Below are positions 1-16,663 of a DNA stretch of 16,663 bases, in pieces (positions within the stretch are counted from its first letter, which is position 1; the number at the start of each line of letters is the position of its first letter). Source of the DNA: a virus (lineage: Duplodnaviria; Heunggongvirae; Uroviricota; Caudoviricetes); the IMG/VR virus record IMGVR_UViG_2690315994_000023; one strand, 5' to 3'. A program made the translations under genes and the position numbers. The notes under the pieces were generated by a model, which saw nothing but the letters and a program-made list of their open reading frames with translations, did no database searches and was not told where the DNA came from.

Positions 1-171
1 TACCGCCGTGAAGGTTACGAATATGATTGCGTGATGCCTGTTTATCAGTTCCGGCGTGATTTTTCTCTGGTACAGACCGCGCCGCATAACGTGCCCACCA
101 GCAACGCCAGGGCACGGGCAAACATCCAGAAGCTGAAAACCATGGTTAACGGATTCAGGGGCAAGAAATGA
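1..171 (+). CDS. 3' end of an upstream ORF (5'-truncated by the window edge), hypothetical protein
   Basis: Frame 1 is open from position 1 to TGA at 169..171, and the stop overlaps the ATG of the next gene (ATGA at 168..171). It is under 60 aa so absent from the ORF track. The second island has an analogous small ORF coupled to its replicase (11592..11873). Confidence 0.35.
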   Translation, partial: YRREGYEYDCVMPVYQFRRDFSLVQTAPHNVPTSNARARANIQKLKTMVNGFRGKK

Positions 172-740
172 AAAGCGCACCGAACTTAAAAAAACAGCCT
201 TACGACAAGATGACCGAAGTCATTATTTTTGCGGGTAGTGATGCCTGGGCACATGCGAAACAGTGGCAGGAACAGGACGGGCGACTGGCTGGCGATAATG
301 TGCCTCCCGTTGTGCTGGCTGATGATCAACTGGATGAACTGGCAGACCTGAGAATCATCGACGAGGGGCGCTATTGTGTCCGGCTGTACAAGGCAGGCCA
401 CATCAGGCCATCAAATATTAATGCCATTGCGCACAAGCTGGCGGCGGCGGGTGTAACTGATGCGAATTATTACCCCGAAGGGATGCACAGCCATATGCGG
501 GAGAACTGGCGCGAATACCTGGAACGGGTGCGCGGGAAAGAGCCGGCGGAAGAAAAAAACCACCAGCGAAAAACCACGCTACCGATGAGCGTTGGATCTA
601 CCGGATACGACACGCAACTGGATTACGTGGTTAAGGGGATTATTCCGGCGGTATCGCTATGCAGCATATACGGGGCTAGCGGGTCCTATAAATCATTCCT
701 TGCCGGATCGTGGGCGTGCCATGTTGCCACTGGTCGCTAG
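168..740 (+). CDS. Replication initiator, N-terminal part: conserved N-domain plus Walker A P-loop, ending at an in-frame TAG
   Basis: The first ~105 aa align with the N-terminus of the replicase at 11857..13545 (shared FAGSDAW, HAK, AGD..PPV, QLD.L..LRIID.GR, KLA.AGV). The ORF ends just after a P-loop-like IYGASGSYKSFLAG motif, at TAG 738..740. Confidence 0.75.
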   Translation: MKSAPNLKKQPYDKMTEVIIFAGSDAWAHAKQWQEQDGRLAGDNVPPVVLADDQLDELADLRIIDEGRYCVRLYKAGHIRPSNINAIAHKLAAAGVTDANYYPEGMHSHMRENWREYLERVRGKEPAEEKNHQRKTTLPMSVGSTGYDTQLDYVVKGIIPAVSLCSIYGASGSYKSFLAGSWACHVATGR

Positions 741-779
741 TGGGGAGGCCGCAGGGTTGCACATGGTGCGGTTCTCTAT

Positions 780-1568
780 GTGGTTGGTGAAGGCGGTATA
801 GGTGTTCCGCGTCGTGTAAAAGCCTGGGAGGTTGTGCACGATGAGCAGGTGAAAAATCTGTATCTGGTAAACCGCCCCATCTTTCCGGCTGCCCCGCTTG
901 ATGTTGATGAAATGGTTATCGCTGCCCGTCAGGTGGAGCGGGAAACGGGTAAACCTGTACGCATGATTATTCTGGATACGCTGGCGCGTTGCTTTGGTGG
1001 GAATGATGAAAATGATTCCCGTGATATGGGGGCGTTTATCCGTGGTTGTGACGAACTGAAACGACGCACAGGGGCCACGGTGCTGGTGGTTCACCATTCC
1101 GGCAAGGATGAGACGAAAGGCGCGCGCGGTTCCAGTGCATTTCGTGCTTCGCTGGATGCTGAATACCGGATACGCAGGGAGGACGCAGGAAGCGAAGCGC
1201 TGGTTATCTCATGCACCAAAATGAAGGACGCGGAGGAACTCAAAGAAGCCGCATATGACTTACGCGTGGTGGAGCTTTTTACCGACGCTGACGGTGAATT
1301 AATCACGTCGCTGGTGGTGGTGGATGATCCGCGCCCTCCTGTTGAACTGGAGCGCATCGAGGAGGCAGGGAACAAGACGGAAAACCATACCGCGCTATGG
1401 GGATGCATACGTTCACGCACACAGCACGGCGACAAGTGCACGATCCCGCTGTTACGTGACGATATGAAAAAGCTGGGGTATGACACAAAACACCTTAAAC
1501 GATGGTTAGCCAAACTGGAAAAAGACGACGTGATCTACATTGACGGTGATGATGTAGGACCACTGTAA
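780..1568 (+). CDS. Replication initiator, C-terminal part: RepA/DnaB-like RecA-fold ATPase core
   Basis: It is in the same frame as 168..740 (both starts are 0 mod 3). Read-through gives ...ACHVATGR-TAG-WGGRRVAHGAVLYVVGEGG..., the layout expected after Walker A in RepA-like helicases. VLVVHHSGKDETKGARGSSAFRASLD resembles the conserved helicase core. The GTG at 780 has no Shine-Dalgarno, so it is probably not an independent gene. Confidence 0.7.
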   Translation: MVGEGGIGVPRRVKAWEVVHDEQVKNLYLVNRPIFPAAPLDVDEMVIAARQVERETGKPVRMIILDTLARCFGGNDENDSRDMGAFIRGCDELKRRTGATVLVVHHSGKDETKGARGSSAFRASLDAEYRIRREDAGSEALVISCTKMKDAEELKEAAYDLRVVELFTDADGELITSLVVVDDPRPPVELERIEEAGNKTENHTALWGCIRSRTQHGDKCTIPLLRDDMKKLGYDTKHLKRWLAKLEKDDVIYIDGDDVGPL

Positions 1569-1569
1569 A

Positions 1570-1767
1570 AAGTGGGCATTAAAAGTGGGAAAGGTGGGCG
1601 ATTTAACGGAATTTTAACAAAATTACCCACTTTCCCACGTGTATATATCCCAAAAAGTGGGCACTAAAAAAATACCTATGAAACAAGATGATATAAATCC
1701 CAAATTTCCCACGTTGGACGAAGTGGGAAAACGTAAAAAGTGGGCGAAAAAAGTGGGTAGAGGTGGG
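1570..1767. repeat. Iteron array, putative origin of replication of island 1
   Basis: Eleven copies of a 7-bp core. AAGTGGG or AGGTGGG sits at 1570, 1583, 1592, 1655, 1721, 1738, 1751 and 1761. Its reverse complement CCCACTT or CCCACGT sits at 1626, 1634 and 1708. An A/T-rich stretch (1601..1625) lies between the clusters, directly downstream of the replicase. Confidence 0.6.
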
Positions 1768-1770
1768 CAA

Positions 1771-2022
1771 ATGACTCAAAAACACAGAGACAGAACAGAG
1801 CCAAAATATAAAGCGTTAGACATGACAGAGCACGCCTTAAAGGTGGCAATCAGAACGATAGACCGCCACGCGGGGGAAGGATACGCGAAAGCACATCCCG
1901 AACTGATAAGCGCATTCATGACCACGACGGCGGCAAATTTTGCCACGCTGACAGAGCGGGAGATTGCGGAAGCTGAACAGGTGACAACCATCAACGTTAA
2001 AACCGGAGAGGTGGAATCATGA
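1771..2022 (+). CDS. Hypothetical protein (83 aa), translationally coupled to ssb
   Basis: ATG at 1771 is preceded by GAGGTGGG (Shine-Dalgarno-like). The track ORF 1639..2022 extends upstream through the iterons, and that extension is probably not coding. The stop overlaps the ssb start (ATGA at 2019..2022). Confidence 0.45.
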   Translation: MTQKHRDRTEPKYKALDMTEHALKVAIRTIDRHAGEGYAKAHPELISAFMTTTAANFATLTEREIAEAEQVTTINVKTGEVES

Positions 2023-2741: not shown

Positions 2742-2860
2742 TCATGTTTTGTAAATTATTTGTTCGTGGTTGTTCCACGTTGCTCGCTGACCGGAACGGC
2801 ATATTTTACCCGACCTGAATCATGATTATTCTCGCCCGTGGTGCCAGGACGCTGGGGCCA

Positions 2861-2910
2861 TTTTCCCGCCTGTTAATGTGCTCGCCAATATTCATTACCA
2901 GGCGGGAAAA
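2861..2910. promoter_or_regulatory. Perfect 12-bp inverted repeat (TTTTCCCGCCTG ... CAGGCGGGAAAA) with 26-bp spacer, upstream of the capsid gene
   Basis: Arms at 2861..2872 and 2899..2910 are exact reverse complements. The repeat lies in the ~285-bp leader between the PerC-like gene and the capsid operon. It has T upstream and A downstream on both strands, so it is not a terminator. Confidence 0.4.
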
Positions 2911-2999
2911 CGATCGGTGCGATTACTGATTTCCTTATGAAAAACGGTTGAGTGTTTGCCGCGTCCTGGAGTTCCTTACTTAACCCCAGGACTTTTTTT

Positions 3000-4157: not shown

Positions 4158-4167
4158 CAGCATACAG

Positions 4168-4188
4168 AAGGGGCTTAAAAGCCCCTTT
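4168..4188 (+). terminator. Hairpin plus T-run between capsid and protease genes (possible attenuator)
   Basis: AAGGGGC-ttaaaa-GCCCCTT followed by TAGTGTTTT. Confidence 0.4.
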
Positions 4189-4211
4189 AGTGTTTTATGG
4201 GTGAAAAAATT

Positions 4212-4769: not shown

Positions 4770-4770
4770 T

Positions 4771-5982
4771 ATGTGGCCTTTCAGAAGAAAAAAAGAGCAG
4801 CGCAGCATGACGCTTGATGAGTTTATGGCGCTGGCCGGCACATCGAACACGGGGGCGGGTGAGTACGTATCATCGGGGACAGCGGAATCACTGCCCGCCG
4901 TCATGAACGCCGTGACGGTCATCTCTGAGGCGGTGGCTACCATGCCGTGTTACCTGTACCTGGTACGCAATGAGAAGGGGAAGGAGGCCCGCGAGTGGCT
5001 TGATTCTCATCCGGTCGATCACATCCTCAACGAGCGCCCGAACGCGTGGCAAACCCCCTACCAGTTTAAGCGAATGATGATCCGCCACTGCCTGTTAAAC
5101 GGTAATGCTTATGCGGTGATTCGGTGGGGGCGTGATGGTTTTCCGGTGGCTTTACATCCTTACCCGCCGCAGTCGGTGAACGTGGAGCAGACAGGTGAGC
5201 ATAACTGGCGCTACTGCATCACTGACGCCTACACCGGAAACACCCGCAACTATTTACCGTGGGAGGTTCTCCACCTTCGTTACTCCACGGATGACGGTTT
5301 TATGGGGCGCTCACCTGTAACCATCTGCCGCGAATCGCTGGGGCTTGGGCTGGCCCAACAACGCCACGGCGCGAGCGTGATGCGTGATGGCATGATGGCG
5401 GCAGGGGTTATCACGTCAGGCGAATGGCTGGACGGCGTGAAGGGCAAACAGGCATTAGCCGCACTGGAACGCTACAAAGGGGCCAGAAACGCCGGAAAAA
5501 CGCCCATCCTTGAAGGGGGTATGAGCTATCAGCAGCTGGGCATGAGTAATCAGGATGCTGAATGGCTGGCCTCCCGTCGCTTCACCATTGAAGACATCGC
5601 CCGAATGTTCAACGTCTCGCCGATTTTTTTGCAGGAATACAGCAACAGCACCTACAGCAATTTCAGCGAGGCAAGCCGCGCATTTCTCACCATGACGATG
5701 CGCCCGTGGCTGGCGAACTTTGAGCAGCAGATAAAAAACGCCCTGCTGGTGGCCTCACCTGTACCTGGTATCCGGTATCAGGTGGAGTTTGACAGCGCGG
5801 ACCTGTTACGGGCCACACCTGGCGAACGCTTTGCCACCTATGAACGCGGCATCAAATCCGGCGTTATGTGCCCGAACGAAGCCCGCGAACGTGAAGGGCT
5901 GTCCCCGCGTGATGGTGGTGATGAGTTCAGCCAGGCATGGAAACAGGAAGTAAAAATCAGCGAGGGAGAAAAACCGGAATGA
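4771..5982 (+). CDS. Portal protein, HK97 family
   Basis: A 403-aa protein starting 2 nt after the protease stop. Its length, composition and position in the head module fit phage portal proteins. Confidence 0.85.
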   Translation: MWPFRRKKEQRSMTLDEFMALAGTSNTGAGEYVSSGTAESLPAVMNAVTVISEAVATMPCYLYLVRNEKGKEAREWLDSHPVDHILNERPNAWQTPYQFKRMMIRHCLLNGNAYAVIRWGRDGFPVALHPYPPQSVNVEQTGEHNWRYCITDAYTGNTRNYLPWEVLHLRYSTDDGFMGRSPVTICRESLGLGLAQQRHGASVMRDGMMAAGVITSGEWLDGVKGKQALAALERYKGARNAGKTPILEGGMSYQQLGMSNQDAEWLASRRFTIEDIARMFNVSPIFLQEYSNSTYSNFSEASRAFLTMTMRPWLANFEQQIKNALLVASPVPGIRYQVEFDSADLLRATPGERFATYERGIKSGVMCPNEAREREGLSPRDGGDEFSQAWKQEVKISEGEKPE

Positions 5983-6317
5983 ACATAGGGCGACTGCGTG
6001 ACAGGGTAACGATTCAGACCCTGAAACAGACCAGGGATATAACCGGCGAAATACTCGAAACGTGGGTGGACGGTCACACACTCTGGGCAAGCGTGAACAT
6101 GATCAGCAGCAAGGAGGCCATTTCATCGGGTGCAGAACTGGCGACTGGAACGGTAAGGATATGGATACGCTACAGGAAGGACATCAACGCCACCAGCCGG
6201 ATAAAGGTCAATACGGGGCCGCTGGCGGGGCGTGTACTGAATATCATCGGGCAGCCGCTGCCGGATGCCGCCAGGACACGCCTTGAAATTCTTTGTCGTG
6301 AGGGCGCGGAAAAATGA
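5979..6317 (+). CDS. Head-closure / head-tail joining protein (SPP1 gp16-like)
   Basis: ATG overlaps the portal stop (ATGA). A ~112-aa protein with RDRVTIQ ... GTVRIWIRYRKDI ... RVLNIIG motifs typical of phage head-tail joining proteins. Confidence 0.7.
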   Translation: MNIGRLRDRVTIQTLKQTRDITGEILETWVDGHTLWASVNMISSKEAISSGAELATGTVRIWIRYRKDINATSRIKVNTGPLAGRVLNIIGQPLPDAARTRLEILCREGAEK

Positions 6318-6610
6318 CAGAAGAACTTATCACCCTGGAAGAAGTGAAACTCCATTGCCGCATCGATGGCGACGAGGAAGACCAGTTAATCAGCGGATAC
6401 ATTGCCGCATCGCTTGAGGCGTGCCAGATACATATAGGCAGGCGCTTTGATGACGGGCTGGAGTTCACGCCAGCCATAAAGATTGGCTGCATGATGTTTA
6501 TCGCTCACCTGTACGAGAATCGCCAGCTGGTAGCGGATAACGCAAAAACGCGCGTACCCATGACGATTGGCGCGCTCTGGACGGCTTACCGTGATGTGGG
6601 GGTGTACTGA
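6314..6610 (+). CDS. Head-tail connector / DNA-packaging adaptor (gp6-like)
   Basis: ATG overlaps the previous stop. The N-terminal LITLEEVKLHCRIDGDEEDQLI and the IAHLYENR motif match gp6-like head-tail connector proteins. Confidence 0.7.
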   Translation: MTEELITLEEVKLHCRIDGDEEDQLISGYIAASLEACQIHIGRRFDDGLEFTPAIKIGCMMFIAHLYENRQLVADNAKTRVPMTIGALWTAYRDVGVY

Positions 6611-7050
6611 TGCCGTGGCAACCATTAAGACGATGCACAGAACCAGGCTGTAACAGGCGCGTGAAGTCCGGCAAGTGTGAGGAGCACAGGCGGGCGGCAT
6701 GGCGTGCAGAGGATGCCAGACGAGGACACCGCCGCGCGCGTGGGTACTCCAGACAGTGGGACAAATACCGCGCCATGTATCTGAGTAAAAACCCGTTATG
6801 CGTGCGATGCCTTGAGAAGGGGATATATACGCCCGCCGTGGTGGTGGATCACATTATCCCGATTAATGGCGGTGATGATGTTCTCTTCTGGCCCGAATGG
6901 AACCATCAACCATTGTGCCAGGCGTGTCATAACCAGAAAACGAAATGGCTTGATCCGGCAACAAAAAGCAAGCGTGCCGCAGGTGGATTTCATGAAGAGG
7001 AAGAACGGGCCGCTAACCGCAATAACTGGATGTATGACGCTGATGAATGA
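6610..7050 (+). CDS. HNH endonuclease (phage packaging-associated)
   Basis: Cys-rich zinc-binding motifs (CTEPGC..., CVRC) and the HNH signature VDHIIP ... NHQPLCQACHNQKT. It sits immediately upstream of terS/terL, as in cos-type HK97-like phages. Confidence 0.85.
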   Translation: MPWQPLRRCTEPGCNRRVKSGKCEEHRRAAWRAEDARRGHRRARGYSRQWDKYRAMYLSKNPLCVRCLEKGIYTPAVVVDHIIPINGGDDVLFWPEWNHQPLCQACHNQKTKWLDPATKSKRAAGGFHEEEERAANRNNWMYDADE

Positions 7051-7216
7051 GCGGGAACAAAACCGCCTTATCCGTGGACTTATAAGGCAGCGTGACGCAT
7101 GGAAGACACAGGAAACAGGGCATAAAGATAAAGCGTCAGGACGCGCAGAACGCATCACAGCGAAGCGATTAACCGACCGTGACCGCGAGGTTATGGAATG
7201 TTTCCGCAATCGCTGA
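7034..7216 (+). CDS. Hypothetical small basic protein (about 60 aa)
   Basis: ATG at 7034 (or 7043) in a frame overlapping the HNH 3' end. The track ORF 6812..7216 is an implausible upstream extension inside HNH. Confidence 0.3.
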   Translation: MTLMNEREQNRLIRGLIRQRDAWKTQETGHKDKASGRAERITAKRLTDRDREVMECFRNR

Positions 7217-7227
7217 TGAGGCTGTAT

Positions 7228-7272
7228 GACGGGGTGGGGGGCGTTTTCAGGACAAACCCGACCCCGCCGGGC
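7228..7272. other. Candidate cos / terminase recognition region (G-run and C-run imperfect dyad)
   Basis: GACGGGGTGGGGGGCG, a 13-bp spacer, then CCCGACCCCGCCGGGC, in the only sizeable intergenic gap between HNH and terS. Confidence 0.25.
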
Positions 7273-7339
7273 ACCGAACGCCTCCTCAAATTTTTATGCA
7301 CGGGAATTTTTTGAAAAATAATCTGGCGAAAAAATAAGC

Positions 7340-7696
7340 ATGGCAAGACCACCGAAAGCCCCCGCCTACCTGGATGATATCGCCGTGAAGCAGTGGCGGG
7401 AAAAATCGCGGCAGCTTGCGGAACGGGGAGACCTTACCCCCGCCGACTGGAGTAATCTGGAACTGTATTGTGTCAACTACTCCATTTACCGGAAAGCCGT
7501 TGCAGACCTTGCGGCGCGCGGGTTCAGCATTGTTAACAGTCAGGGCGGCGAGAGCAGAAACCCCGCATTAAGCGCAAAATCCGACGCTGAAAGAGTGATG
7601 ATAAAAATGGCCTCCTTGCTCGGTTTTGACCCGATAAGCCGCCGTAAAAATCCACCGGAAACAGAAGAAGAGGACGAGCTTGACCGCCTGGAATAA
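7340..7696 (+). CDS. terS: Terminase small subunit, P27 family
   Basis: A 118-aa protein directly upstream of and overlapping terL. The N-terminal PKAPAYLDDIAVKQWREKSRQLAERGDLTPADWSNLELYCVNYSIYRKA matches P27-family small terminases. Confidence 0.75.
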   Translation: MARPPKAPAYLDDIAVKQWREKSRQLAERGDLTPADWSNLELYCVNYSIYRKAVADLAARGFSIVNSQGGESRNPALSAKSDAERVMIKMASLLGFDPISRRKNPPETEEEDELDRLE

Positions 7697-9341
7697 GTAC
7701 GCAGAAGACGTAAAAACGGGCAAAATTCCGGCCTGTAAACGGCTGAAACAGGCCGTTAAACGGTACTTTTCGGACCTTGAAAGCCCCCTTTACACGTTCG
7801 ATCGTGAGGTTGTGGAGCGGTTTATTGCCTTTTCCAGGGTGTGCCCGCACGTAAAAGGCGCAATGCGCGGTAGCCCCATTGAGCTGGAGCCGTGGCAGCA
7901 GTTCGCCTTTGCGTGCATCCTCGGCTTTAAGGTTAAGGCCACCGGACGGCGCAAATACACGAGCGCCTTTATCGAAGTGCCGCGCAAAAATGCGAAATCC
8001 ACGACCGCCGCGATTCTGGCTAACTGGTTTTTGATTATGGAGAACGGTCAGCAGGATATCTACACCGCAGCGGTGAGCCGTGACCAGGCGCGGATCGTCT
8101 TTGATGATGCGCGTCAGATGTGCCTTTTATCCCGACCGTTACGCAGGCGGGTGAATATTCAGGCGCATAAGGTGATACACCCGAAAAGCAACAGCCTGTT
8201 AAAGCCGCTGGCAGCAAAAGCGGCAACCATTGAAGGTACAAACCCGAGTCTTGCCATTGTGGATGAATATCACCTGCACCCTGACAACGGGGTTTATTCC
8301 GCGCTTGAACTGGGAATGGGGGCGCGTCCGGAGGGGCTGTTATTTGCCATCACCACATCGGGGAGCAACGTTGTTTCAGCCTGTAAACAACACTACGACT
8401 ATTGCTGCCAGATACTGGATGGTGAAGAGGTGAACGAATCCATGTTCGTGCTGATTTACGAGCTGGATGATGAAAGCGAGGTTGACGATCCGGCGATGTG
8501 GATAAAGGCGAATCCAAATATCGATGTTTCCGTCGATCGTGAAAAACTGGCCTCAACCATCCAGAAAGCGCGGGGTATTCCGTCGCAGTGGGTGGAAATG
8601 CTCACCAAGCGATTCAATATCTGGTGTCAGGGGGCTACGCCGTGGATGGGTAACGGTGCATGGGCGGAGTGCGCCGGAACGTTCACGGAGGAAGATTTAC
8701 ACGGCCAGGAGTGTTACGCGGGGCTGGATTTATCATCCACAAGCGATATTTCCAGCGTGTGCTATGCCTTTCCGGTCGGTAAAACCATTATGCTGGTTTC
8801 CCGTCATTATCTGCCGGAGTTCCAGCTACAGAACCCCGCCAATAAAAACCGCGCTGTCTATCGTCAGTGGGCTAAAGCGGGCTGGATACGCACAACGCCT
8901 GGCGACTGCATTGATTACGACCGGATCAGAGATGACATCATGCAGGACGCGGAGAAATTTAATATCAGGCTGGTGGGCTTTGATACGTGGAACGCCACGC
9001 ATCTCAGAACGCAATTACAGGGGGCAGGTTTTGAGGTGGAGCCGTTCCCGCAAACCTACCTCAGATTCAGTCCGGCGGCGAAATCGTTCGAAGTTTTTGT
9101 TAACCGCAGGGTGATTGTGCATCGTGGCGATCCGGTGTTGTCCTGGTCGATGAGTAACGTTGTGATGCAGAGTGACGCGAACGCCAATATCAAGCCGAAC
9201 AAGAAAAAATCACCGAACAAGATAGACCCGAGCGTGGCGGCACTGATGGCGTTTGGCACATTCCAGGCAGAGCATGAGGATTTTGAATTCGATATGAGCG
9301 ATAGCCATAAGCAGCGACTTGCCGAATTTACCGGGATTTGA
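7680..9341 (+). CDS. terL: Terminase large subunit
   Basis: A 553-aa protein with a Walker A-like segment (EVPRKNAKST), a Walker B-like stretch (LAIVDEYH) and a C-terminal nuclease-like region. The start is uncertain: TTG at 7680, overlapping the terS 3' end. Confidence 0.88.
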   Translation: MTAWNKYAEDVKTGKIPACKRLKQAVKRYFSDLESPLYTFDREVVERFIAFSRVCPHVKGAMRGSPIELEPWQQFAFACILGFKVKATGRRKYTSAFIEVPRKNAKSTTAAILANWFLIMENGQQDIYTAAVSRDQARIVFDDARQMCLLSRPLRRRVNIQAHKVIHPKSNSLLKPLAAKAATIEGTNPSLAIVDEYHLHPDNGVYSALELGMGARPEGLLFAITTSGSNVVSACKQHYDYCCQILDGEEVNESMFVLIYELDDESEVDDPAMWIKANPNIDVSVDREKLASTIQKARGIPSQWVEMLTKRFNIWCQGATPWMGNGAWAECAGTFTEEDLHGQECYAGLDLSSTSDISSVCYAFPVGKTIMLVSRHYLPEFQLQNPANKNRAVYRQWAKAGWIRTTPGDCIDYDRIRDDIMQDAEKFNIRLVGFDTWNATHLRTQLQGAGFEVEPFPQTYLRFSPAAKSFEVFVNRRVIVHRGDPVLSWSMSNVVMQSDANANIKPNKKKSPNKIDPSVAALMAFGTFQAEHEDFEFDMSDSHKQRLAEFTGI

Positions 9342-9343
9342 AT

Positions 9344-9535
9344 ATGCTCAAACACAAGAAAATTGAGTCTGTGATCGACGAAATGGCACGTCAATTAGGC
9401 CATGAACTTAACGGGCAGGATAAGCTGGTAATCCGCACTAAAACAGCTATGGTGTTGGCCGCTAAACAGCGGTACCGTCAGCGCATGGAAGCGCCACCCT
9501 ATCAGTGGCGAAAGCCAGATAAATTAAGGCGTTGA
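9344..9535 (+). CDS. Hypothetical small protein (63 aa), last gene of the packaging operon
   Basis: ATG 9344 lies 3 nt after the terL stop, and a strong terminator follows. Confidence 0.4.
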   Translation: MLKHKKIESVIDEMARQLGHELNGQDKLVIRTKTAMVLAAKQRYRQRMEAPPYQWRKPDKLRR

Positions 9536-9556
9536 AAGAGGTTCATCCCCCTACAA

Positions 9557-9588
9557 AGCACCAGTATTGTTCTGGTGCTTTTTTGTTT
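9557..9588 (+). terminator. Rho-independent terminator at the end of island 1
   Basis: Perfect 8-bp stem AGCACCAG / CTGGTGCT with a 7-nt loop, followed by TTTTTTGTTTGTT. Confidence 0.8.
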
Positions 9589-9601
9589 GTTCAGAAAAAG
9601 C

Positions 9602-9625
9602 TGTATAAACATTTGTATAAACATT
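9602..9625. repeat. Perfect tandem direct repeat, 2 x TGTATAAACATT
   Basis: Copies at 9602..9613 and 9614..9625, between two terminators in the island junction. Confidence 0.6.
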
Positions 9626-9632
9626 AATAAAA

Positions 9633-9662
9633 AAGGCGCTTCCCCATGCCGAGTAGCGCCTT
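9633..9662. terminator. Bidirectional-type terminator hairpin (A-run, stem, T-run)
   Basis: AAAAAAGGCGCT, a 14-nt loop, then AGCGCCTTTTT. Confidence 0.6.
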
Positions 9663-9873
9663 TTTAATCAAGCAGTTAGCTAAATTGAATTAGTTCATGC
9701 CGTATTGTAAAATACAGAGTCATTATACGTAATTTATTATCACTCTAGATAATTTGTATTCATCATAAATAATTGATGCAGAACGAGATATTTATTTTTT
9801 ATTGGCTCGCATTGTATCATCAGTTATCAGTTACTCCCTGCATACAGTTGTCAAAAAGGTTGTCATTAACTCT

Positions 9874-11109
9874 ATGGCCGAAAATAAACTCTCAGATGTT
9901 CAATTGCGTGCGTTAACCCGCAAAGTCATCGAAAAACCTTTTGATGTTGCTGACGGTGGCAGCCTTTCTGTTCGCGTTACACCATCAAGGCGCAAAATCC
10001 TTGATGGCGAGAAGAGACCGGCCAATAACATCCAATGGTTGTTCCGTTATAAGAATAAGCATAAAAGCGCCAATACTTTGACGCTAGTGCTGGGCAAGTA
10101 TCCTGCCTTATCTCTTGCTGAGGCGAGGGTGAAACGCGACCAATGCAAACGGTGGCTTGCTCATAATCTAGATCCTAAAGACCAGTTTGACCAAGAGTCA
10201 GCAAAAACCATGAAACCTGTCACTATCAGGGAAGCATTGGAACGCTGGATTAATGAGTACGCGGCGGAAAACCGGGTCAACTTTGAAAGGCATAGACGCC
10301 AATTCGAAAGACATATTTATCCTTTCATCGGCGAATTGCCACTTGAACAGTGCTCTAAAGCAAGATGGATGGAGACATTTAGCAGAATCAAAAAAGTCGC
10401 GCCGGTAGCAAGCGGCTACATATTAGGTAACTGCAAGCAGGCGTTGATTCACAACCGCAGGCTGCACGATGTTTACAGTGATGCGCTGGAGGATATCAAA
10501 GTTACTGATGTTGGAAGAAAGCAGGCAAAACGTGATCGTGTTTTAACTTCTGAAGAACTTAGTGGCCTTTGGAATGCGCTAAAAAGCGAATATGCGTTTC
10601 TACCTTACTACACCGCGCTTTTAAAATTGCTAATAGTGTTTGGTGCAAGAACACAAGAAATTCGTCTTTCGACATGGTCGGAATGGAACGTGAAAGAATG
10701 GATTTGGACAGTTCCGCGAGAACATAGCAAGGGTGGGGAGAAAATCATCAGACCCGTGCCTGAATCTATACAGCCATTTATTTTACAGCTACGCCAAAAT
10801 CATCTTGATAGCGGAATGCTGCTTGGTGAAATGAAGAAACCCGAAGCTGTCAGCCAGTGGGGGCGTATCTTATACAGGCGATTAGAGCATTCAACGCCGT
10901 GGACGTTGCATGACCTGCGCCGCACTTTTGCCACCAGTCTAAATAACTTGGGGATAGCCCCGCATGTGGTTGAACAGTTGCTGGGCCACTCAATGCCAGG
11001 AGTGATGGCGGTGTACAACCGTAGCCAGTACATCCCGGAAAAACGGTTAGCCTTGGACAAATGGATAAAATATTTAGAAAAAATAAACCTTTTAAAATCA
11101 GATAATTAA
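9874..11109 (+). CDS. int: Tyrosine recombinase / integrase, P4 type
   Basis: An N-terminal arm-binding-like region (LSVRVTPSRRKILDGEKRPANNIQWLFRY) and a C-terminal catalytic region with HDLRRTFATSL and LLGHS...AVYNRSQY (tyrosine nucleophile). ATG 9874 is preferred over the track's TTG at 9802. Confidence 0.88.
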   Translation: MAENKLSDVQLRALTRKVIEKPFDVADGGSLSVRVTPSRRKILDGEKRPANNIQWLFRYKNKHKSANTLTLVLGKYPALSLAEARVKRDQCKRWLAHNLDPKDQFDQESAKTMKPVTIREALERWINEYAAENRVNFERHRRQFERHIYPFIGELPLEQCSKARWMETFSRIKKVAPVASGYILGNCKQALIHNRRLHDVYSDALEDIKVTDVGRKQAKRDRVLTSEELSGLWNALKSEYAFLPYYTALLKLLIVFGARTQEIRLSTWSEWNVKEWIWTVPREHSKGGEKIIRPVPESIQPFILQLRQNHLDSGMLLGEMKKPEAVSQWGRILYRRLEHSTPWTLHDLRRTFATSLNNLGIAPHVVEQLLGHSMPGVMAVYNRSQYIPEKRLALDKWIKYLEKINLLKSDN

Positions 11110-11218
11110 AAATTGATGATTATATAGAGTTATGTAGCGTTATTTGCAGTTAAGTTTATGAATTTAAAGGGTATTTACTGCTGATACAATTTGAGTATTA
11201 TTGTCATGTAGTAATAAA

Positions 11219-11243
11219 AAGCCCCCAGCAGAACTGAGGGCTT
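11219..11243 (-). terminator. Hairpin followed by a T-run only on the minus strand
   Basis: AAGCCC-c-CAG loop CTG-a-GGGCTT. The + strand has AATAAAAA upstream, so the U-run is on the minus-strand transcript, and no T-run follows on the + strand. Confidence 0.35.
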
Positions 11244-11403
11244 GAATAAGGCGGGGATCGGTTCACGTCGCCAAACAGAAAACCGAACCCCTTAATACCA
11301 AAAAGCCGGTGAAGGCTGTAATGGTCGCGTTCTTTGTTAACGCAACATAATCATAAATCATTACAGACCACATATCCACCGGCCATGTTTTGAGGGCCGT
11401 AAG

Positions 11404-11583
11404 ATGGAATTACTGACTGCTAAGCAAGTCACAACACTAACAACATTATCCCGCATGACTATCTGGCGCTATATCCAGGCTGGCACGTTTCCTAATTGCA
11501 TAAAATTAGGGCCAAAACGCGTGGCCTGGCGGCGCAAAGATGTTATGGCGTGGCTTGAAAGCCGCCAGCCAGTACAGCGCTGA
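11404..11583 (+). CDS. alpA: AlpA-family (MerR-like HTH) prophage transcriptional regulator
   Basis: A 59-aa ORF, below the track cutoff. LLTAKQVTTLTTLSRMTIWRYIQAGTFPNCIKLGPKRVAWRRKDVMAWLESRQ matches the AlpA helix-turn-helix pattern. It sits directly downstream of int, as in P4-like elements and PICIs. Confidence 0.8.
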   Translation: MELLTAKQVTTLTTLSRMTIWRYIQAGTFPNCIKLGPKRVAWRRKDVMAWLESRQPVQR

Positions 11584-11591
11584 GGTGGCTT

Positions 11592-11873
11592 ATGAAGAAA
11601 ACAACCGTAAATCAGGCTATCAGTCGCTATAACAGCCTGTTGCGTAACCCACAGCGCCAGTTAACCGTTGGCGAACTTACCGCCCAGCGTATGGCGGCAG
11701 CACAATTATTGTTGCAAGCATGCATTCGCGAAGGTGTAAACCGCCCGTGGACTATTGTTTCACGTCACGCCGCTATGGCTGATAGCCTGGTGCCGTTTCG
11801 CATCAGCGATTCTGAATCATGGGCGATGTATCTGGAGTTAAAACGCGGGGTGCGATATGAGAAACGCGCCTAA
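11592..11873 (+). CDS. Hypothetical protein (93 aa), translationally coupled to replicase 2
   Basis: ATG 11592 follows the GAGGTGG Shine-Dalgarno, and the 3' end overlaps the replicase start by 17 nt. Confidence 0.5.
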   Translation: MKKTTVNQAISRYNSLLRNPQRQLTVGELTAQRMAAAQLLLQACIREGVNRPWTIVSRHAAMADSLVPFRISDSESWAMYLELKRGVRYEKRA

Positions 11874-13545
11874 CGTTAAGCTATTACCTAAAGACCCTTT
11901 TACGGAAGCAATTATTTTTGCCGGTTCTGACGCTTGGAGCCATGCCAAGGGCTGGGAAGAAGGAATGGGTAAACAAGTTGCCGGTGACACTACTCCTCCT
12001 GTCTATCTTGGGCCAAGACAACTGGATGATTTAGATAATCTACGAATTATCGACGATGGTCGCCGGTCTGCGCGGGTATATCTGGCTGGTGATATTAAGC
12101 AACTTCAAATCAGCACTATTGCTGACAAGCTGGCAGTGGCTGGAGTTAAGGAAGCCCGTTTATTTAAAGGCATTACTGACCGTGAACCGGAAAAATGGAA
12201 CATGGACAGGCTTAGAGACGCCGCCCTACGCGGTGAAAGCCTGGTGGGCATGCTGCGCAAAGAAGAACGAGCAACCGCCGCAGCAACTGTAAAAGACATT
12301 CACGATATGGCTCCTGTATTAATGACAACCTGGCCAAATATTGGAAGCAATGGCCAGCCTTTAAACACACGCCCTAATGTTGAACGTCTATTAGATAACT
12401 ACAGCATTTCTGCAAAATATAATGAGATTAGCAAGGACGTTGAGGTTTTAGTACCTGGCGTTAGTGGCGGTTCAGATGCTCGCGATAACTGCGCTGTGAG
12501 TGAAATTTTAAGCCTCGCCGCACTGAACCGGTTACCAATGAGTAATATTGAAGGTCATATCAAAACTATCGCTGTGCGCAATACTTATAATCCTGTCAGG
12601 GATTTCATCAATCAACGTGAATGGGATGGACGAAGCCGATTTGCAGACCTGCTGAATACTATCAGCACGCCAGATGACTACAGTCGCGATCTGCTGGCCA
12701 TGCTGGTGCGTCGTTGGTTGCTGTCTGCCGTGGCGGCTGCTTACTTAGAAGCGGGTTTCTGGTCCAAAGGCGTGCTGGTTTTCCAGGGCGAGCAGTCACT
12801 GGGTAAAACAGCATGGTTTAAAGCGCTTCTGCCCCCTGACAATCGCAACCTGGTTAAGGTGGGAGCAACTATTGACCCCGGCAATAAAGACAGCGTGGCC
12901 AGCGCAATTAGTCACTGGCTTGTTGAGCTAGGCGAATTGGATGCGACGTTTCGCAAGGCGGATATTGCCAAGCTCAAAGCATTTATCAGCCAGGACCGTG
13001 ATGACCTGCGCCGCCCTTATGACCGGCTTGAATCGAAGTACCAGCGCCGCACCGTGTTTTTTGCGTCAGTGAACCCGAAACACTTCCTGGCGGATGACAC
13101 CGGGAACGTGCGCTGGTGGACCATTCCTGTAACTGCCGTTAACTACGAGCATGGCATAGACACACAACAATTATGGGCCGAAGTTCTTTCCTGGTTTGAA
13201 GCAGGTGAACGCTGGTGGCTGGATCGTGATGAAGAAGCCATGCTGGAAGTAGTGAACGAACAGCACGGGCAAACTGACCCGATTGAAGAAATGATATTGG
13301 CGCGTTTTGATTGGAACAGTGATCGCCTGGCTGCATATATAGAAATGACTGCAACGGATGTTCTGTTGTCTATTGGGCAGGATCGGCCAACAAAATCCCA
13401 GGCAACGCAGTGCGGTAACATTCTGCGAAAACTGACTGGAAGGGATGCACGTAGAACAAGTAAAGGGCGTTTTTACCTAATGCCACCGAAAGTTTTTGGA
13501 CAGCAAGACCATAGCTATTTTGATGGGCCTAACCGCCAGTTTTGA
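11857..13545 (+). CDS. Replication initiator: conserved N-domain + P4-alpha/VirE-like P-loop NTPase (primase-helicase type)
   Basis: The N-terminal ~105 aa are homologous to those of ORF 168..740. The central and C-terminal part has Walker A GEQSLGKTAWFKAL and downstream motifs (LVELGELD, RTVFFASVNP) of the P4-alpha / D5 / VirE-type superfamily-3-like NTPase found in satellite primases. Confidence 0.8.
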   Translation: MRNAPNVKLLPKDPFTEAIIFAGSDAWSHAKGWEEGMGKQVAGDTTPPVYLGPRQLDDLDNLRIIDDGRRSARVYLAGDIKQLQISTIADKLAVAGVKEARLFKGITDREPEKWNMDRLRDAALRGESLVGMLRKEERATAAATVKDIHDMAPVLMTTWPNIGSNGQPLNTRPNVERLLDNYSISAKYNEISKDVEVLVPGVSGGSDARDNCAVSEILSLAALNRLPMSNIEGHIKTIAVRNTYNPVRDFINQREWDGRSRFADLLNTISTPDDYSRDLLAMLVRRWLLSAVAAAYLEAGFWSKGVLVFQGEQSLGKTAWFKALLPPDNRNLVKVGATIDPGNKDSVASAISHWLVELGELDATFRKADIAKLKAFISQDRDDLRRPYDRLESKYQRRTVFFASVNPKHFLADDTGNVRWWTIPVTAVNYEHGIDTQQLWAEVLSWFEAGERWWLDRDEEAMLEVVNEQHGQTDPIEEMILARFDWNSDRLAAYIEMTATDVLLSIGQDRPTKSQATQCGNILRKLTGRDARRTSKGRFYLMPPKVFGQQDHSYFDGPNRQF

Positions 13546-13554
13546 GGTGATACT

Positions 13555-13779
13555 ATGAGTTATCGCGTATATATCATTGCTTTTGACCCGGAACACGGCA
13601 CCTACACCGAAACCGAAATCATGGAAGGTTTCGCCACTGAACAGGAAGCGGTAGACCATGCTCGCAATAGGCTGCCAGAGGTGCAGCAGGAACTGGCCAA
13701 GTTGGGTGAAAACCTGCTATGCAGCTACCGCATAAGGGTAGTGGATTCCGCTGAAATCTTGCCGTTTCTCCGCTCATAA
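13555..13779 (+). CDS. Hypothetical protein (74 aa)
   Basis: ATG 13555 follows the GAGGTGA Shine-Dalgarno, and a terminator lies downstream. Confidence 0.45.
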   Translation: MSYRVYIIAFDPEHGTYTETEIMEGFATEQEAVDHARNRLPEVQQELAKLGENLLCSYRIRVVDSAEILPFLRS

Positions 13780-13802
13780 TATCACAACGGTTGTTACCCA
13801 TT

Positions 13803-13834
13803 GCCCTGGCGAATGCCGGGGCTTTTTTTATTTT
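13803..13834 (+). terminator. Rho-independent terminator
   Basis: GCCCTGGC-gaat-GCCGGGGC hairpin followed by TTTTTTTATTTT. Confidence 0.7.
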
Positions 13835-13848
13835 CAAAGTGACGCCTA

Positions 13849-14151
13849 GGTGTCATTAATTTATAAGGTGTCATGGTAGGTGTCATTGTTCTCAAGCCAT
13901 AACCCGCAAGGGTTGCGACATTACTAATGACACCTATGACACCTATGACAGCATTTTTAAAGAAAATAACGACCACTGTAATAATGTAACAGTGGTCGTT
14001 ATACTTTATAGAAATGGGTGTCATGGTGTCACAGGTGTCATTCATTACAGTATCTTGTTTGTATTTTTCTTTAATAATCAGCGTGTTTCCCGCTATGACA
14101 CCTAATGACACCTTTCCAACATAACGCCGTCATGGTGACATTAGGTGTCAT
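13849..14151. repeat. Iteron array, putative origin of replication of island 2
   Basis: GGTGTCAT at 13849, 13867, 13879, 14017, 14034 and 14144. Its reverse complement ATGACACC at 13927, 13936, 14095 and 14105. Variants GGTGTCAC at 14025, GGTGACAT at 14134, and a partial at 13945. The array has an AT-rich centre. Confidence 0.65.
13966..14002. repeat. Perfect 14-bp inverted repeat (ATAACGACCACTGT / ACAGTGGTCGTTAT) with 9-bp AT spacer, at the centre of the iteron array
   Basis: Exact reverse-complement arms at 13966..13979 and 13989..14002. Confidence 0.6.
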
Positions 14152-14545
14152 CGCCATCTGCTGCCAAAAAAGTCAAGGTACTTCCGAGGGGGGTACAGCC
14201 TGCGGGGGCATTGGTCCCGCGTAATTCGCGTTGTGCGTGCCCCTACAAAACTCACTTTATGATTACGTCAAGTAAATCAATCATTTATGTGAATCCTATC
14301 AAAGCACTGGAACCATAATTGCGAGATTGCAAAATAAAGCGAACACGTTTTACACACGCTGAATTGTAAAGATGTGTAAATATCGATTACGCCGGATTAT
14401 GCCTGGTTATTTGCAAGTATTCATGGTTATAAGTTACTGATTTTACATTAAAAAGCTCACATTGTGGCTATTGTGTTCGGCCTGGTTACTGTATATCTTT
14501 AAGTCATTCCAGACGATTTATTGCACAACAACCGGAGCATTTTTA

Positions 14546-15430
14546 ATGAACGTTTTATCTCAACTTATCAACGACGCGTTGAACCACCAGGGCGGCCACA
14601 TTCGCACTGATGGCAACGGTGACATTACTCAATTCATCCCTGTGGAACCTGCAGCAGTTCGCTACCTGTCCATGAATGACGTGCTGACCCCGAAAGGCGG
14701 CAAGCAGACCACCTTCAACGCTGTTCTGGCTGAACGTTCACTGGTGGCACAGGCAGGCGCTGAAATCATCCGCATCCCTGGCCCGATGACCACGCCTCCG
14801 ACTGGCAACACCGGCGCAACGACTGGCCGCGAAGTGGCTGACCGCTTCGTTGTCGTTCGCCCTGGTGCGTTCGCCAAAGTGGCTGACGGCGAAGAAATCA
14901 CCATGAGCGGCCTGCCTTACCTGGTATCAGCGTTCAACCACAACAACGCACCGGCTTACGGCGTGGGCTACACCCTTAGCCGCAAGCAGATGAAACACGA
15001 CTTCGCAGACGATACCACGCTGGAAGTGGTCAACACCGCCATTGAACGCGGAATTGCTGACCTGGCTGATTTCGTACTGCTGAACCACCTGGAAACCGCA
15101 GCGGAAACGCTGGCCAGCCCGTCATTCACCGCAGTGGCGCAGAAGATTGCAGCCAAAAACCTGCGCTTTGATGAAGTTAAAGCCATTGTTGGCGGTGATT
15201 GCACCGGCCTGGAACTGCAAGACGGCGTTCTGCGTGCCTACGGTGTACGCGCTGAAATCAGCGGCCAGACTTCCAGCACAATCATTGGCGCTTTCGGCAA
15301 TGCAGCCGTTGCCCTGGATGATGAAATCCGCGTCACCGCCCGCCGCGTGCTGAATGGTGCCGTTGAAATCGTTGTGTGGGTGAACGCATCCGCACTGGTG
15401 CCTGACTCAACTATGTTCTGGAAGGCTTGA
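14546..15430 (+). CDS. Hypothetical protein (294 aa), Ala/Gly/Thr-rich, strongly optimised codon usage
   Basis: ATG 14546 has GGAG 7 nt upstream. Codon choice is heavily biased (CTG, CGC/CGT, GGC, ACC, AAC, TTC, GAA), unlike neighbouring genes. It has no signal peptide and no recognisable catalytic motif. Confidence 0.6.
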   Translation: MNVLSQLINDALNHQGGHIRTDGNGDITQFIPVEPAAVRYLSMNDVLTPKGGKQTTFNAVLAERSLVAQAGAEIIRIPGPMTTPPTGNTGATTGREVADRFVVVRPGAFAKVADGEEITMSGLPYLVSAFNHNNAPAYGVGYTLSRKQMKHDFADDTTLEVVNTAIERGIADLADFVLLNHLETAAETLASPSFTAVAQKIAAKNLRFDEVKAIVGGDCTGLELQDGVLRAYGVRAEISGQTSSTIIGAFGNAAVALDDEIRVTARRVLNGAVEIVVWVNASALVPDSTMFWKA

Positions 15431-15432
15431 TC

Positions 15433-15747
15433 ATGTGGTGGGGCAGCAAAAAAGCGGCAGCGGAGCGCGCTGCCCTGCCGGGTGAAATCCTGGCAGCTAT
15501 CGAAGGTGTGGCCATGTATGTGCGCCACGGTGATGAAAACACACCGCGCATCGTAGTGCAGCCGGTTGGCTGGTCAGGATTCATCTACAGCGATGACGCT
15601 GCTGAAAAATGGATTCGCAAGGCTTACCCGGAGCTTAAGCAGTACCAGATTGAACGCGCCGTGAATTACCTCGCTTCCCTGGTGCGCAGTCACTACCGCG
15701 AGCAGCGCCCGAAACAGAAGCGCGAAAGCTGGATGAACAGGTACTAA
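15433..15747 (+). CDS. Hypothetical protein (104 aa), translationally coupled to the upstream gene
   Basis: ATG 15433 starts 2 nt after the upstream TGA (TGATCATG). Confidence 0.5.
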   Translation: MWWGSKKAAAERAALPGEILAAIEGVAMYVRHGDENTPRIVVQPVGWSGFIYSDDAAEKWIRKAYPELKQYQIERAVNYLASLVRSHYREQRPKQKRESWMNRY

Positions 15748-15750
15748 GCC

Positions 15751-15915
15751 ATGAAACGACAAGAAACACGCCAGCACGTAACGGTACGCCTCGCCCCTGA
15801 CCTGGTGCGCCAGGTCGAAAGAGAGCAAGCCAAACTGGAACGCAGAACAGGCATCCGCCCTTCACGCAGCCAGGTGATTGAAAAGTTTCTGAGTAGCGGG
15901 CTGAACGGCAAATAA
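15751..15915 (+). CDS. Ribbon-helix-helix (CopG/Arc-like) DNA-binding protein, 54 aa
   Basis: Below the track cutoff. A predicted beta-strand VTVRLAP is followed by two helices (DLVRQVEREQAKLERRTG, SRSQVIEKFL), the classical ribbon-helix-helix layout. It starts 3 nt after the upstream stop. Confidence 0.55.
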   Translation: MKRQETRQHVTVRLAPDLVRQVEREQAKLERRTGIRPSRSQVIEKFLSSGLNGK

Positions 15916-16129
15916 TGGCCAAGAATACAGGTTTCACCGGTTCCCTGTGCCCCAAATAACCGGCCAAATTTAACCTTCATCGTTCCTCAGACGATGGATG
16001 CTGGAACCAGGTTGGTGGTCATCCTGGACGGTCAAAACCACCACTAATTCCACACCGGTTGCGCCGCACCTGTCACCTAAAAGCGCGCACTCACTTAATC
16101 ATCAACAACTATTGTTAGCGGCCAATACT

Positions 16130-16447
16130 ATGAAAAAACATGACCTGTACGAATCAATGAAAGAAGAAGCGCGTTTGATCCTTAGCGAAACAAAGCGTTT
16201 CCAAACCATTTCAGAGAAAAACCCTATCAGCTACGAAGCAGCCGACCTGCTGGCAAGCCTTCGCAACCGTTTAAACGCATTCGAACACATGACCGATGAA
16301 GCGGGCCGCATCATGCGTGACGAAGCGGAAAGCCACGCATCCGCCCTGGGACGCACGAAGTGGCAACCATCCAGCCGCATCAGTTCCGGTGAACGGGCCA
16401 AACGCCAGGCGGTGAAGCGCGGCGCTATCCTGGTACGGAGTGCATAA
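16130..16447 (+). CDS. Hypothetical charged, probably helical protein (105 aa)
   Basis: ATG 16130 is preferred. The track extension from 15998 is Ser/Thr/Pro/Trp-rich and low-complexity, so unlikely to be coding. Confidence 0.4.
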   Translation: MKKHDLYESMKEEARLILSETKRFQTISEKNPISYEAADLLASLRNRLNAFEHMTDEAGRIMRDEAESHASALGRTKWQPSSRISSGERAKRQAVKRGAILVRSA

Positions 16448-16456
16448 GGGGGCACC

Positions 16457-16663
16457 ATGCTGGACCGTATTCACACAAAACCGGAAGGAACAAACCCCTG
16501 GCCTGAACTGGTGGATATGGTCCTGCCAAAAGTTCTGGCGTGCAACACAGCGGAGGAAATGCAGAAACAGCGAGACTACCGCACCGAATGCGCCCTGCAA
16601 CTGGCCGCTGCCGCCTTGCGGGCAATCGGTGAACACACCCTTGCAGAAAATTTACTTAATTAA
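16457..16663 (+). CDS. Hypothetical protein (68 aa)
   Basis: ATG 16457 follows the AAGGGGG Shine-Dalgarno, with TAA at the window end. Confidence 0.4.
   Translation: MLDRIHTKPEGTNPWPELVDMVLPKVLACNTAEEMQKQRDYRTECALQLAAAALRAIGEHTLAENLLN

Follow-up and report, generated by a model that had tools for sequence, protein, structure and literature searches.

The sequence analyzed here is a 16,663-nucleotide stretch of viral DNA (IMG/VR record IMGVR_UViG_2690315994_000023), referred to in its whole length as the window, in which two Escherichia coli phage satellites lie in tandem: a capsid-forming phage-inducible chromosomal island (cf-PICI; island 1) and an int-alpA-VapE island (island 2). Each carries a rep gene encoding an initiator-helicase, followed by an iteron origin, and the satellite module int - alpA - ... 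- rep - ori, read in one direction, was recognized for both islands. The two replicases begin with the same domain of approximately 120 residues (hereafter the N-domain) and continue into different helicases, each accompanied by its own origin. That this N-domain is a shared component whose helicase-origin cassettes have been shuffled between satellites is, on the data presented below, next to certain.

Positions 1 to 9307 (island 1) are 98% identical to a cf-PICI locus, L001, in which the gene order is int, a helix-turn-helix regulator, small open reading frames (ORFs), DUF4222, "helicase RepA family protein," SSB, PerC, capsid, protease, portal, head-closure and connector genes, HNH, TerS, and TerL. 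The portion of island 1 that lies in the window follows the same order (rep, ori, SSB, PerC, capsid, protease, portal, HNH, TerS, TerL), int and the regulator being located upstream of the island-1-type rep in L001. Positions 9627 to 16663 (island 2) are 99.9% identical to an island, L002, found between yhdJ and fis in strain E62 and consisting of an integrase gene, AlpA, a 93-amino-acid (aa) ORF, a "VapE domain-containing protein" gene, and several hypothetical genes. The genes directly upstream of rep are unrelated between the two islands. cf-PICIs abut fis in other genomes, making tandem insertion at one attachment (att) site plausible and suggesting that both islands use the same site.

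BLASTP of ORF 168..737 against ORF 11857..13542 gave 62 identities in 123 positions (50%; 67% positives; E=1e-34), with residues 1 to 122 of the island-1 protein aligned to residues 1 to 120 of the island-2 protein. The original prediction, made by eye, had put the identity of the N termini at about 45% over some 105 aa, which proves slightly conservative, and the pairwise alignment proposed there as a check lies well above noise. Beyond the N-domains, BLASTP detected nothing significant between the two proteins. Half of the amino acids of the two N-domain copies have remained identical though their DNA similarity is gone. Recent recombination between the two window islands was considered and rejected, as DNA similarity between them was found nowhere and tblastx revealed the N-domain only.

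The N-domain matched no Pfam or NCBIfam model, and sequence searches of the PDB with narrow and broad profiles were also without a match. A hidden Markov model search of 1.84 billion representative proteins returned 136 N-domain matches. In full-length members the domain starts at residue ~1, the few offset matches being fragments or likely misstarted ORFs. Close members come from Enterobacterales and distant ones (20 to 30% identity) from Pasteurellaceae (Mannheimia, Haemophilus, Avibacterium, Aggregatibacter), the two groups in which Gram-negative PICIs were described. Among 50,697 phage records, the domain was present in only 3, one of which, a 16.5-kb "induced prophage," we read as a satellite because of its size; among 72,556 plasmid records, 15 contained it. 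It is also found in the experimentally characterized Pri-Rep of the PICI EcCICFT073, the N terminus of which is 62% identical to the island-1 type (E=1e-47) and 47% identical to island 2 (E=2e-27), with no similarity of either island protein to this Pri-Rep past residue ~125.

Several database entries depart from the full-length arrangement. P0094, P0116, P0073, and P0150 join the N-domain in frame with SSB, PerC, or a major capsid protein; these look like deletion derivatives without the helicase-origin cassette. Many other matches are frameshifted or truncated N-domain copies, consistent with frequent decay of satellite replicases. Upstream of rep, a DUF4222 gene was present in 13 of 22 loci (L001, L004, L007, L010, L011, L013, L014, L017 to L019, L021, L022, and L024), associated with any helicase class and reaching 4 nt into the region of the rep start codon (ATGA overlap), so that translation of the two may be coupled. 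The idea that rep requires a conserved partner gene upstream was nonetheless rejected: besides DUF4222, at least five other families occupy that position.

AlphaFold2 modeling of the island-2 copy, in line with the structure prediction envisaged in the original prediction, gave a confident alpha/beta fold (predicted local distance difference test score [pLDDT] 92.2; predicted template modeling score [pTM] 0.87) with the element order beta1, alpha1, beta2, alpha2, beta3, alpha3, beta4, beta5, alpha4. The only invariant residues family-wide are A4, G23, and L56, with P5, A26, P48, and A93 near invariant; none of them is acidic. Between proteins of different helicase class, the ratio of nonsynonymous to synonymous substitution rates (dN/dS) on the N-domain was 0.06 to 0.25, indicating that the segment is under protein-level constraint and is more than a recombination arm. 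The features of the two replicons are collected in Table 1.

Table 1. Coordinates, in the window, of the replication features of islands 1 and 2
Feature	Position	Strand	Remarks
Island-1 initiator-helicase gene	168..1568	+	466 codons, single internal stop in continuous frame-1 translation
Shared N-domain, island-1 copy, residues 1-122	168..533	+	BLASTP 50%, E=1e-34 to island-2 copy
In-frame TAG, Gln191 to amber	738..740	+	Just after Walker A motif GASGSYKS
AAA_25 / RepA-like RecA-fold ATPase, residues 148-315	609..1112	+	PF13481 E=1e-43; RSF1010 RepA 1g8y E=0.006
Variable "replicon cassette" (linker + helicase + C-terminal region + iterons)	534..1842	+	Nonhomologous to EcCICFT073
Island-1 origin	1565..1775	.	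~12 RRGTGGG, both orientations, around A+T-rich center
Island-2 int	9802-11109		
Island-2 alpA	11404-11583		Phage_AlpA, E=3.5e-13
Island-2 initiator-helicase gene, 562 aa	11857..13545	+	ORF list, translation; "VapE domain-containing protein" in L002
Shared N-domain, island-2 copy, residues 1-120	11857..12216	+	BLASTP; AlphaFold2 model
Helicase half, residues 159-547	12331..13497	+	Homologous to C-terminal half of Enterobacter phage Arya primase-helicase
Island-2 origin	13847..14154	.	At least 10 AGGTGTCAT, both orientations, around A+T-rich inverted repeat 13952-14016

Past the N-domain the two proteins belong to separate Pfam families, as had been proposed from the sequence: island 1 encodes an AAA_25 (RepA-like) RecA-fold ATPase with the Walker A motif GASGSYKS, the protein matching phrog_2850 over its full length, and island 2 encodes a VapE-like ATPase (PF05272, residues 252 to 470, E=4.5e-48) with the Walker A motif GEQSLGKT at residues 311 to 318. 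The island-2 ATPase region also matched PDB entry 7pds ("Similar to D. nodosus vapE"; E=2e-16), and the C-terminal 92 aa gave a weak, sub-threshold match to DUF3874 (E=6e-4). The nearest relatives of the island-2 helicase half are phage proteins of ~765 aa, such as the "DNA primase" of Enterobacter phage Arya, of which residues 365 to 753 align with island-2 residues 159 to 547 with 254 of 389 identities (65%) and zero gaps, the aligned stretch spanning the helicase and the C-terminal region. The first 364 residues of Arya, which contain PriCT-2 (15 to 86) and Toprim_3/4 (234 to 333), stand replaced in island 2 by the N-domain and linker, 158 residues in all. Comparable relationships were seen elsewhere. 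In P4 alpha a zinc ribbon and Toprim_3 directly precede D5_N, and in the PHROG profiles that the two window proteins match, the helicase part comes after 400 to 515 profile positions, the families bearing the names "DNA primase" or "DNA polymerase/primase." Together, these comparisons make the satellite proteins look like phage or plasmid primase-helicases in which the primase half was swapped for a domain of ~120 aa; as aligned, the N-domain sits where the phage relatives have their primase half.

The original prediction had further proposed domain shuffling among satellite initiators, and the family data bear this out on a far broader scale, with four helicase families and mosaic loci. Architectures were determined by scanning 22 full-length members with Pfam and by classing 19 genomic loci by BLASTP against those. 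The N-domain was found joined to AAA_25, VapE-like, DUF927, or D5_N + DUF5906 + Pox_D5 (superfamily 3 [SF3]) helicases, the last combination being the helicase half of P4 alpha. N-domain clades cross-cut these classes. Thus, two loci from the same Erwinia psidii genome, L008 (DUF927) and L009 (D5_N), have N-domains that are 97% identical. N-domain identities between other proteins of different class were 92% for L007 from Citrobacter (AAA_25) and L006/L013 from Kluyvera (D5_N); 94% for P0124 (AAA_25) and P0125 (D5_N); 82% for island 1 (AAA_25) and P0121 (DUF927); and ~80% for island 2 (VapE) and L004/L005 (D5_N).

DNA alignments place one junction of these mosaics where the coding sequence of the N-domain stops and the other shortly beyond the origin. 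A 550-bp block (97.6% identity), extending from -129 to +420 of the gene (codon ~140), is common to L008 and L009, with no other similarity within ~3 kb on either side and a separate 1-kb, 80% identical block ~3 kb downstream. Between the integrase and approximately codon 120 of rep, EcCICFT073 runs collinear with the island-1-type cf-PICI, the identity being 93 to 98% just upstream of rep and 55 to 92% inside the N-domain; the two are unrelated across the helicase and origin and become homologous again before the SSB gene. In this comparison (L024 and L001), homology is lost at L001:14533 and regained at L001:15843, corresponding to window positions 533 and 1843.

Each rep is accompanied by a different iteron family, again as had been noted from the sequence. 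All seven window copies of AAGTGGG fall within 1570-1757 next to the island-1 rep (1.98 expected in the whole window), and 10 of the 11 copies of GGTGTCAT fall within 13849-14151 next to the island-2 rep (0.56 expected). In both islands the origin lies downstream of rep and consists of two iteron sets around an A+T-rich region, a layout that corresponds to the one described for EcCICFT073 (PMC6092414). Across the family, the iterons follow the helicase class and the extreme C terminus: P4-like GTGAACA/TGTTCAC variants in the D5_N class (P4 type I being TGTTCACC); TGGGACAA, TGAACCA, or GTGGGTTA in the DUF927 class; AAAGTGGG or TTGCCGCA in the AAA_25 class; and AGGTGTCAT in the VapE class. L006 and L013 have near-identical N-domains and helicase cores, are only 25 to 32% identical in the last ~40 residues, and differ in their iterons.

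These patterns bear directly on the possibility, left standing in the original prediction, that the initiator recognizes its origin or iterons through the N-domain. Some initiators do have N-terminal DNA-binding domains, and each replicase here adjoins iterons of its own. Against this, N-domains that are 97% identical (L008 and L009) or 92% identical (L007 and L013) are paired with unrelated iterons (TGGGATAAG versus GTGAACAG and TTGCCGCA versus GTAGACAC, respectively), and a search of 20 origins for a common DNA motif, as a candidate N-domain site, yielded none beyond A/T runs. In SaPI (Staphylococcus aureus pathogenicity island) Rep and SCC (staphylococcal cassette chromosome) Cch, moreover, it is a C-terminal winged-helix domain that binds the iterons, the function of the N-terminal domain being unknown (PMC9371898). 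The association of near-identical N-domains with unrelated iterons indicates that the origin is not recognized by the N-domain. Origin recognition by this domain is therefore effectively excluded, with only a minimal residual probability, and the statement that the N-domain is not what determines the origin can be made with high confidence. To judge from the covariation, it is the helicase/C-terminal cassette that carries origin specificity along with it, which is also the case for SaPI Rep and P4 alpha.

Four further observations concern the origins. In the comparison of L019:5764-6050 with L021:5764-6050, the two D5_N-class Pri-Reps are nine residues apart, three of them in the last 30 (N559T, M562V, A579T), and the respective iterons are GTGTATACC and GTGTTCAT; going by the sequences, origin specificity seems to have been switched here in nature. 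In the DUF927-class origin of E. psidii (L008:6140-6440), the iterons CTTATCCCA / TGGGATAAG resemble the DnaA box consensus TTATCCACA. In island 2, a G+C-rich hairpin followed by a T run (GCCCTGGCGAATGCCGGGGCTTTTTTT) at 13800-13835 separates the iterons from a 74-aa ORF located downstream of rep; it resembles an intrinsic terminator and would shield the origin from rep transcription. A minus-strand ORF (13794-14111; hypothetical protein in the reference genome) overlaps nearly the whole of the island-2 iteron array and is probably not a gene.

The island-1 gene is interrupted. ORF 168..740, the reading frame named in the original prediction, is a fragment and not a whole gene, the frame opened at 168 running on to 1568 past the TAG at 738-740. 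At the homologous place in L001 (a 99.8%-identical locus) there is an intact 466-aa "helicase RepA family protein" with CAG at the corresponding codon, C to T being the sole difference in a 101-nt alignment. An 81-nt probe across the TAG had an exact match in none (0/383) of the complete E. coli genomes that carry the segment, and the closest among the probe matches listed had one mismatch. The in-frame TAG and the CAG of L001 imply either that the island-1 replicase is a nonsense mutant or that the base is a sequencing error. The TAG parts the Walker A motif from the rest of the ATPase, and the AAA_25/RepA reading frame of island 1 is not intact; the copy in the window is probably defective and the cf-PICI of this strain probably replication defective.

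What the N-domain does can be approached through the alternatives. The names "DNA primase" and "Pri-Rep" imply that these proteins are true primase-helicases, in which case the N-domain would be a minimal, divergent Toprim-type primase. Its position is that of the Toprim in P4 alpha and the phage Arya primase; a primase half is present in every donor-type protein, so priming must come from something; and EcCICFT073's pri-rep-ori alone sustains plasmid replication (PMC6092414). The domain itself, however, does not have the characters of such an enzyme. Pfam Toprim did not match it even at E <= 0.1, and hhalign comparisons with P4 alpha alone and with P4-type plus Arya-type Toprim profiles returned probabilities of 0.06 to 0.2%. 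Genuine Toprims in the relatives have CEGYATG or AEGYATA at the beta-1 position; the N-domain lacks the conserved glutamate at the end of beta-1 (residues 18 to 22, AIIFA), where alanine at position 22 is followed by the invariant G23, and in place of the DxD at the end of beta-3 (residues 71 to 76) it has A-G-[D/H/E/L/N/K/V/Q]. Among the invariant positions of the family there is no acidic residue. At ~120 aa, the domain is without a zinc ribbon and without an N-terminal RNA-polymerase subdomain, and the P4 alpha-type zinc-ribbon plus Toprim_3 primase half was absent, by Pfam, from both window proteins and all 22 full-length members. Foldseek found nothing in the PDB at E <= 0.001, the nonsignificant matches being to Argonaute-MID and other Rossmann-like structures; against viral models it gave a single significant match, to an unnamed 112-aa protein, and weak matches to primases. 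On these sequence features an active Toprim-type primase is unlikely, and the true primase-helicase explanation as a whole we consider improbable. The Toprim-like IIFAGSDAW segment seen in the original prediction has IIFAG at the place of the [C/A]EGYAT of genuine Toprims; Toprim ancestry of the N-domain is conceivable but less likely than not.

A different possibility is that the shared segment is a passenger or spacer without a specific biochemical role in replication, conserved mainly because it serves as an arm for recombination or is linked to the rest of the island's left arm. The mosaic boundaries do coincide with the segment, the block exchanged in E. psidii reaches 129 bp upstream of the start codon, and among the database copies, truncations and fusions with other genes are numerous. 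Yet the protein is under strong purifying selection (dN/dS 0.06 to 0.25), the 50% amino acid identity of the window copies has outlasted DNA similarity, the predicted fold is confident (pLDDT 92), the domain has been kept in Pasteurellaceae homologues at 20 to 30% identity, and it is constant while the upstream genes vary (at least six families). A mere passenger would thus be a poor explanation, with about as little to recommend it as the primase.

The explanation that we favor is a single modular plan for both initiators, an initiator-helicase gene followed by an iteron origin. The constant part is the ~120-aa N-terminal alpha/beta domain typical of the Pri-Rep of Gram-negative PICI-type satellites, and the variable part, attached by a short linker, comprises the helicase core, the putative C-terminal DNA-binding region, and the cognate iterons. 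The island-1 cassette is of the RepA/AAA_25 type and that of island 2 of the VapE/SF3 type, derived from an Arya-like phage primase-helicase, with cassettes exchanged by recombination between a left breakpoint at the N-domain coding end and a right breakpoint just past the origin. The N-domain would form a constant adaptor tier of the hexamer, probably noncatalytic to judge from its residues, that links any helicase fitted to it with factors for priming or of the replisome provided by host or helper, DnaG primase being the most plausible of these. Another option is that it handles single-stranded DNA, like the inactive primase-like N-domain of human Twinkle. The data themselves show the N-domain homology, the four architectures, the mosaic breakpoints, the independence of iterons from the N-domain, purifying selection, and the exchange of the primase half, whereas the lack of catalysis and the adaptor role are inferences. 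As a whole, this picture is the best explanation of the data, and we hold it with moderate confidence. Its parts differ in strength. That the N-domain is a previously undescribed "universal coupler" specific to Gram-negative PICI-type satellites, standing in for the primase half of captured phage or plasmid primase-helicases, with priming supplied in trans via host DnaG or a helper primase/replisome component, is a tentative proposal; recruitment of a primase specifically by the N-domain is, if anything, slightly less likely than that. A minimal new kind of primase ranks as less likely than a coupler.

Some points weigh against this explanation. The link of the N-domain to DnaG or any other partner is one that we infer throughout. 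The N-domain clades track host taxa poorly, and E. coli holds both major clades, unlike what a strictly host-factor-specific adaptor would predict. The median isoelectric point of the N-domain, ~6.1, speaks neither for nor against DNA binding. For C-terminal iteron recognition, the evidence here is covariation, chiefly in the D5_N class; for the two window proteins it consists of analogy and the sub-threshold DUF3874 match. Finally, the amber codon of island 1 may be a sequencing error.

Other features of the window relate to the organization of the islands. At the junction between the two satellites (9308-9800), the likeness to the cf-PICI reference stops 34 nt short of the terL end, and the likeness to the yhdJ/fis island begins at 9627; in between, at 9602-9625, there is a perfect 12-bp tandem repeat (TGTATAAACATT x2). 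The 93-aa ORF upstream of the island-2 rep is unrelated to the DUF4222 gene found there in other loci and overlaps rep by 17 nt. Island 2 is an unusual satellite. Past rep and ori (14462-16663; L002:15147-19559), it has five ORFs without a Pfam or PHROG match. It is without capsid or terminase genes, and just past the window end (in L002) it encodes a 757-aa tail tape-measure homologue (phrog_28, E=3e-127). A satellite with a tape-measure gene alone might be able to change the helper's tail.

Which satellites can coexist, as the two neighbors here do, is decided by their replicons, and so is the way in which induced satellites amplify. In the Gram-negative PICI lineage, the data point to a simple rule whereby the small N-domain is kept, the helicase, DNA-binding region, and origin are swapped as a unit, and the donor primase is dropped. 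If the coupler proposal is true, a satellite could take up a helicase-origin cassette of any kind (SF3, SF4/RepA, DUF927, VapE) and change replicon incompatibility without re-evolving the connection to the replisome. In practical terms, the widespread "DNA primase" annotation of these proteins has no recognizable primase domain behind it, and the N-domain, a compact, well-folded domain that has no Pfam or NCBIfam model and that phage and plasmid records almost entirely lack, might be used as a marker of the satellite lineage. The finding is real and coherent and lies within the known biology of mosaic satellite replicons.

In the published record, Fillol-Salom et al. (2018) distinguish "4 allelic variants" of Pri-Rep in E. 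coli PICIs and identify EcCICFT073's pri-rep-ori as a functional replicon that drives plasmid replication (PMC6092414). De Sousa et al. (2023) report primase-replicase trees that are paraphyletic between PICI and cfPICI, with identical left arms, and Mageeney et al. (2023) pool Pox_D5, D5_N, DUF927, Prim-Pol, and Prim_Zn_Ribbon proteins in one "Primase" cluster. The modular rule would account for both the four variants and the paraphyly. The papers searched do not describe the variants as a constant N-domain with four unrelated helicase cassettes, or a "Pri" part without a recognizable primase; nor was a common N-domain, its substitution for the primase half, or a breakpoint at its end found described in the searched passages of these three papers or in the literature searches made.

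The closest known systems are EcCICFT073 and the cf-PICI Pri-Reps, which have the same arrangement (int - alpA - ... - rep - iteron origin with an A+T-rich center - [SSB, PerC] - packaging genes). The EcCICFT073 Pri-Rep likewise starts with the shared N-domain (62% identical to the island-1 type and 47% to island 2) and differs in being of the D5_N/SF3 class, whereas the window proteins are of the AAA_25 and VapE classes. P4 alpha follows the same overall logic, in that one chain combines a region for priming at the N terminus, a helicase, and a region that binds the iterons at the C terminus, encoded beside 8-bp iterons; the D5_N-class members share its D5_N + DUF5906 + Pox_D5 half and have iterons similar to P4 type I TGTTCACC. 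There is a zinc ribbon (residues 30 to 66) and Toprim_3 (210 to 299) in alpha where the satellite proteins have the ~120-aa N-domain, which shows no profile similarity to the alpha Toprim, and the window proteins use other helicase families. The phage Arya primase (PriCT-2 + Toprim_3/4 + VapE) shares with island 2 the ungapped, 65% identical stretch at residues 159 to 547 and differs in its residues 1 to 364 (PriCT-2, Toprim), opposite the 158 residues of N-domain and linker.

The SaPI Rep proteins (Rep1, PriRep5), self-loading initiator-helicases, have three tiers (N-terminal domain, ATPase, and C-terminal winged helix) with C-terminal iteron binding (PMC9371898), a design that the satellite replicases may share. 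Their origins are also downstream of rep, with the iterons as two opposed sets around an A+T-rich center, and the island-2 ATPase matches 7pds, an entry cited in the SaPI Rep paper. They differ in belonging to a Gram-positive host lineage and in that SaPIs have a bona fide primase, either on its own or as a fusion; the family searches found no N-domain members in Gram-positive sources, the SaPI Rep sequences not having been compared directly. T7 gp4, human Twinkle, and RSF1010 RepA are similar to island 1 insofar as the latter joins a possibly Toprim-like N-terminal fold to a RepA/DnaB-type ATPase, the differences being that sequence homology is undetectable and that island 1 has no zinc-binding domain. 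Among these, Twinkle is the analogue that we propose for a noncatalytic N-domain: according to the abstract of the source, its N-terminal domain is primase-like and has lost primase activity but has DNA-binding activity (PMC9860392).

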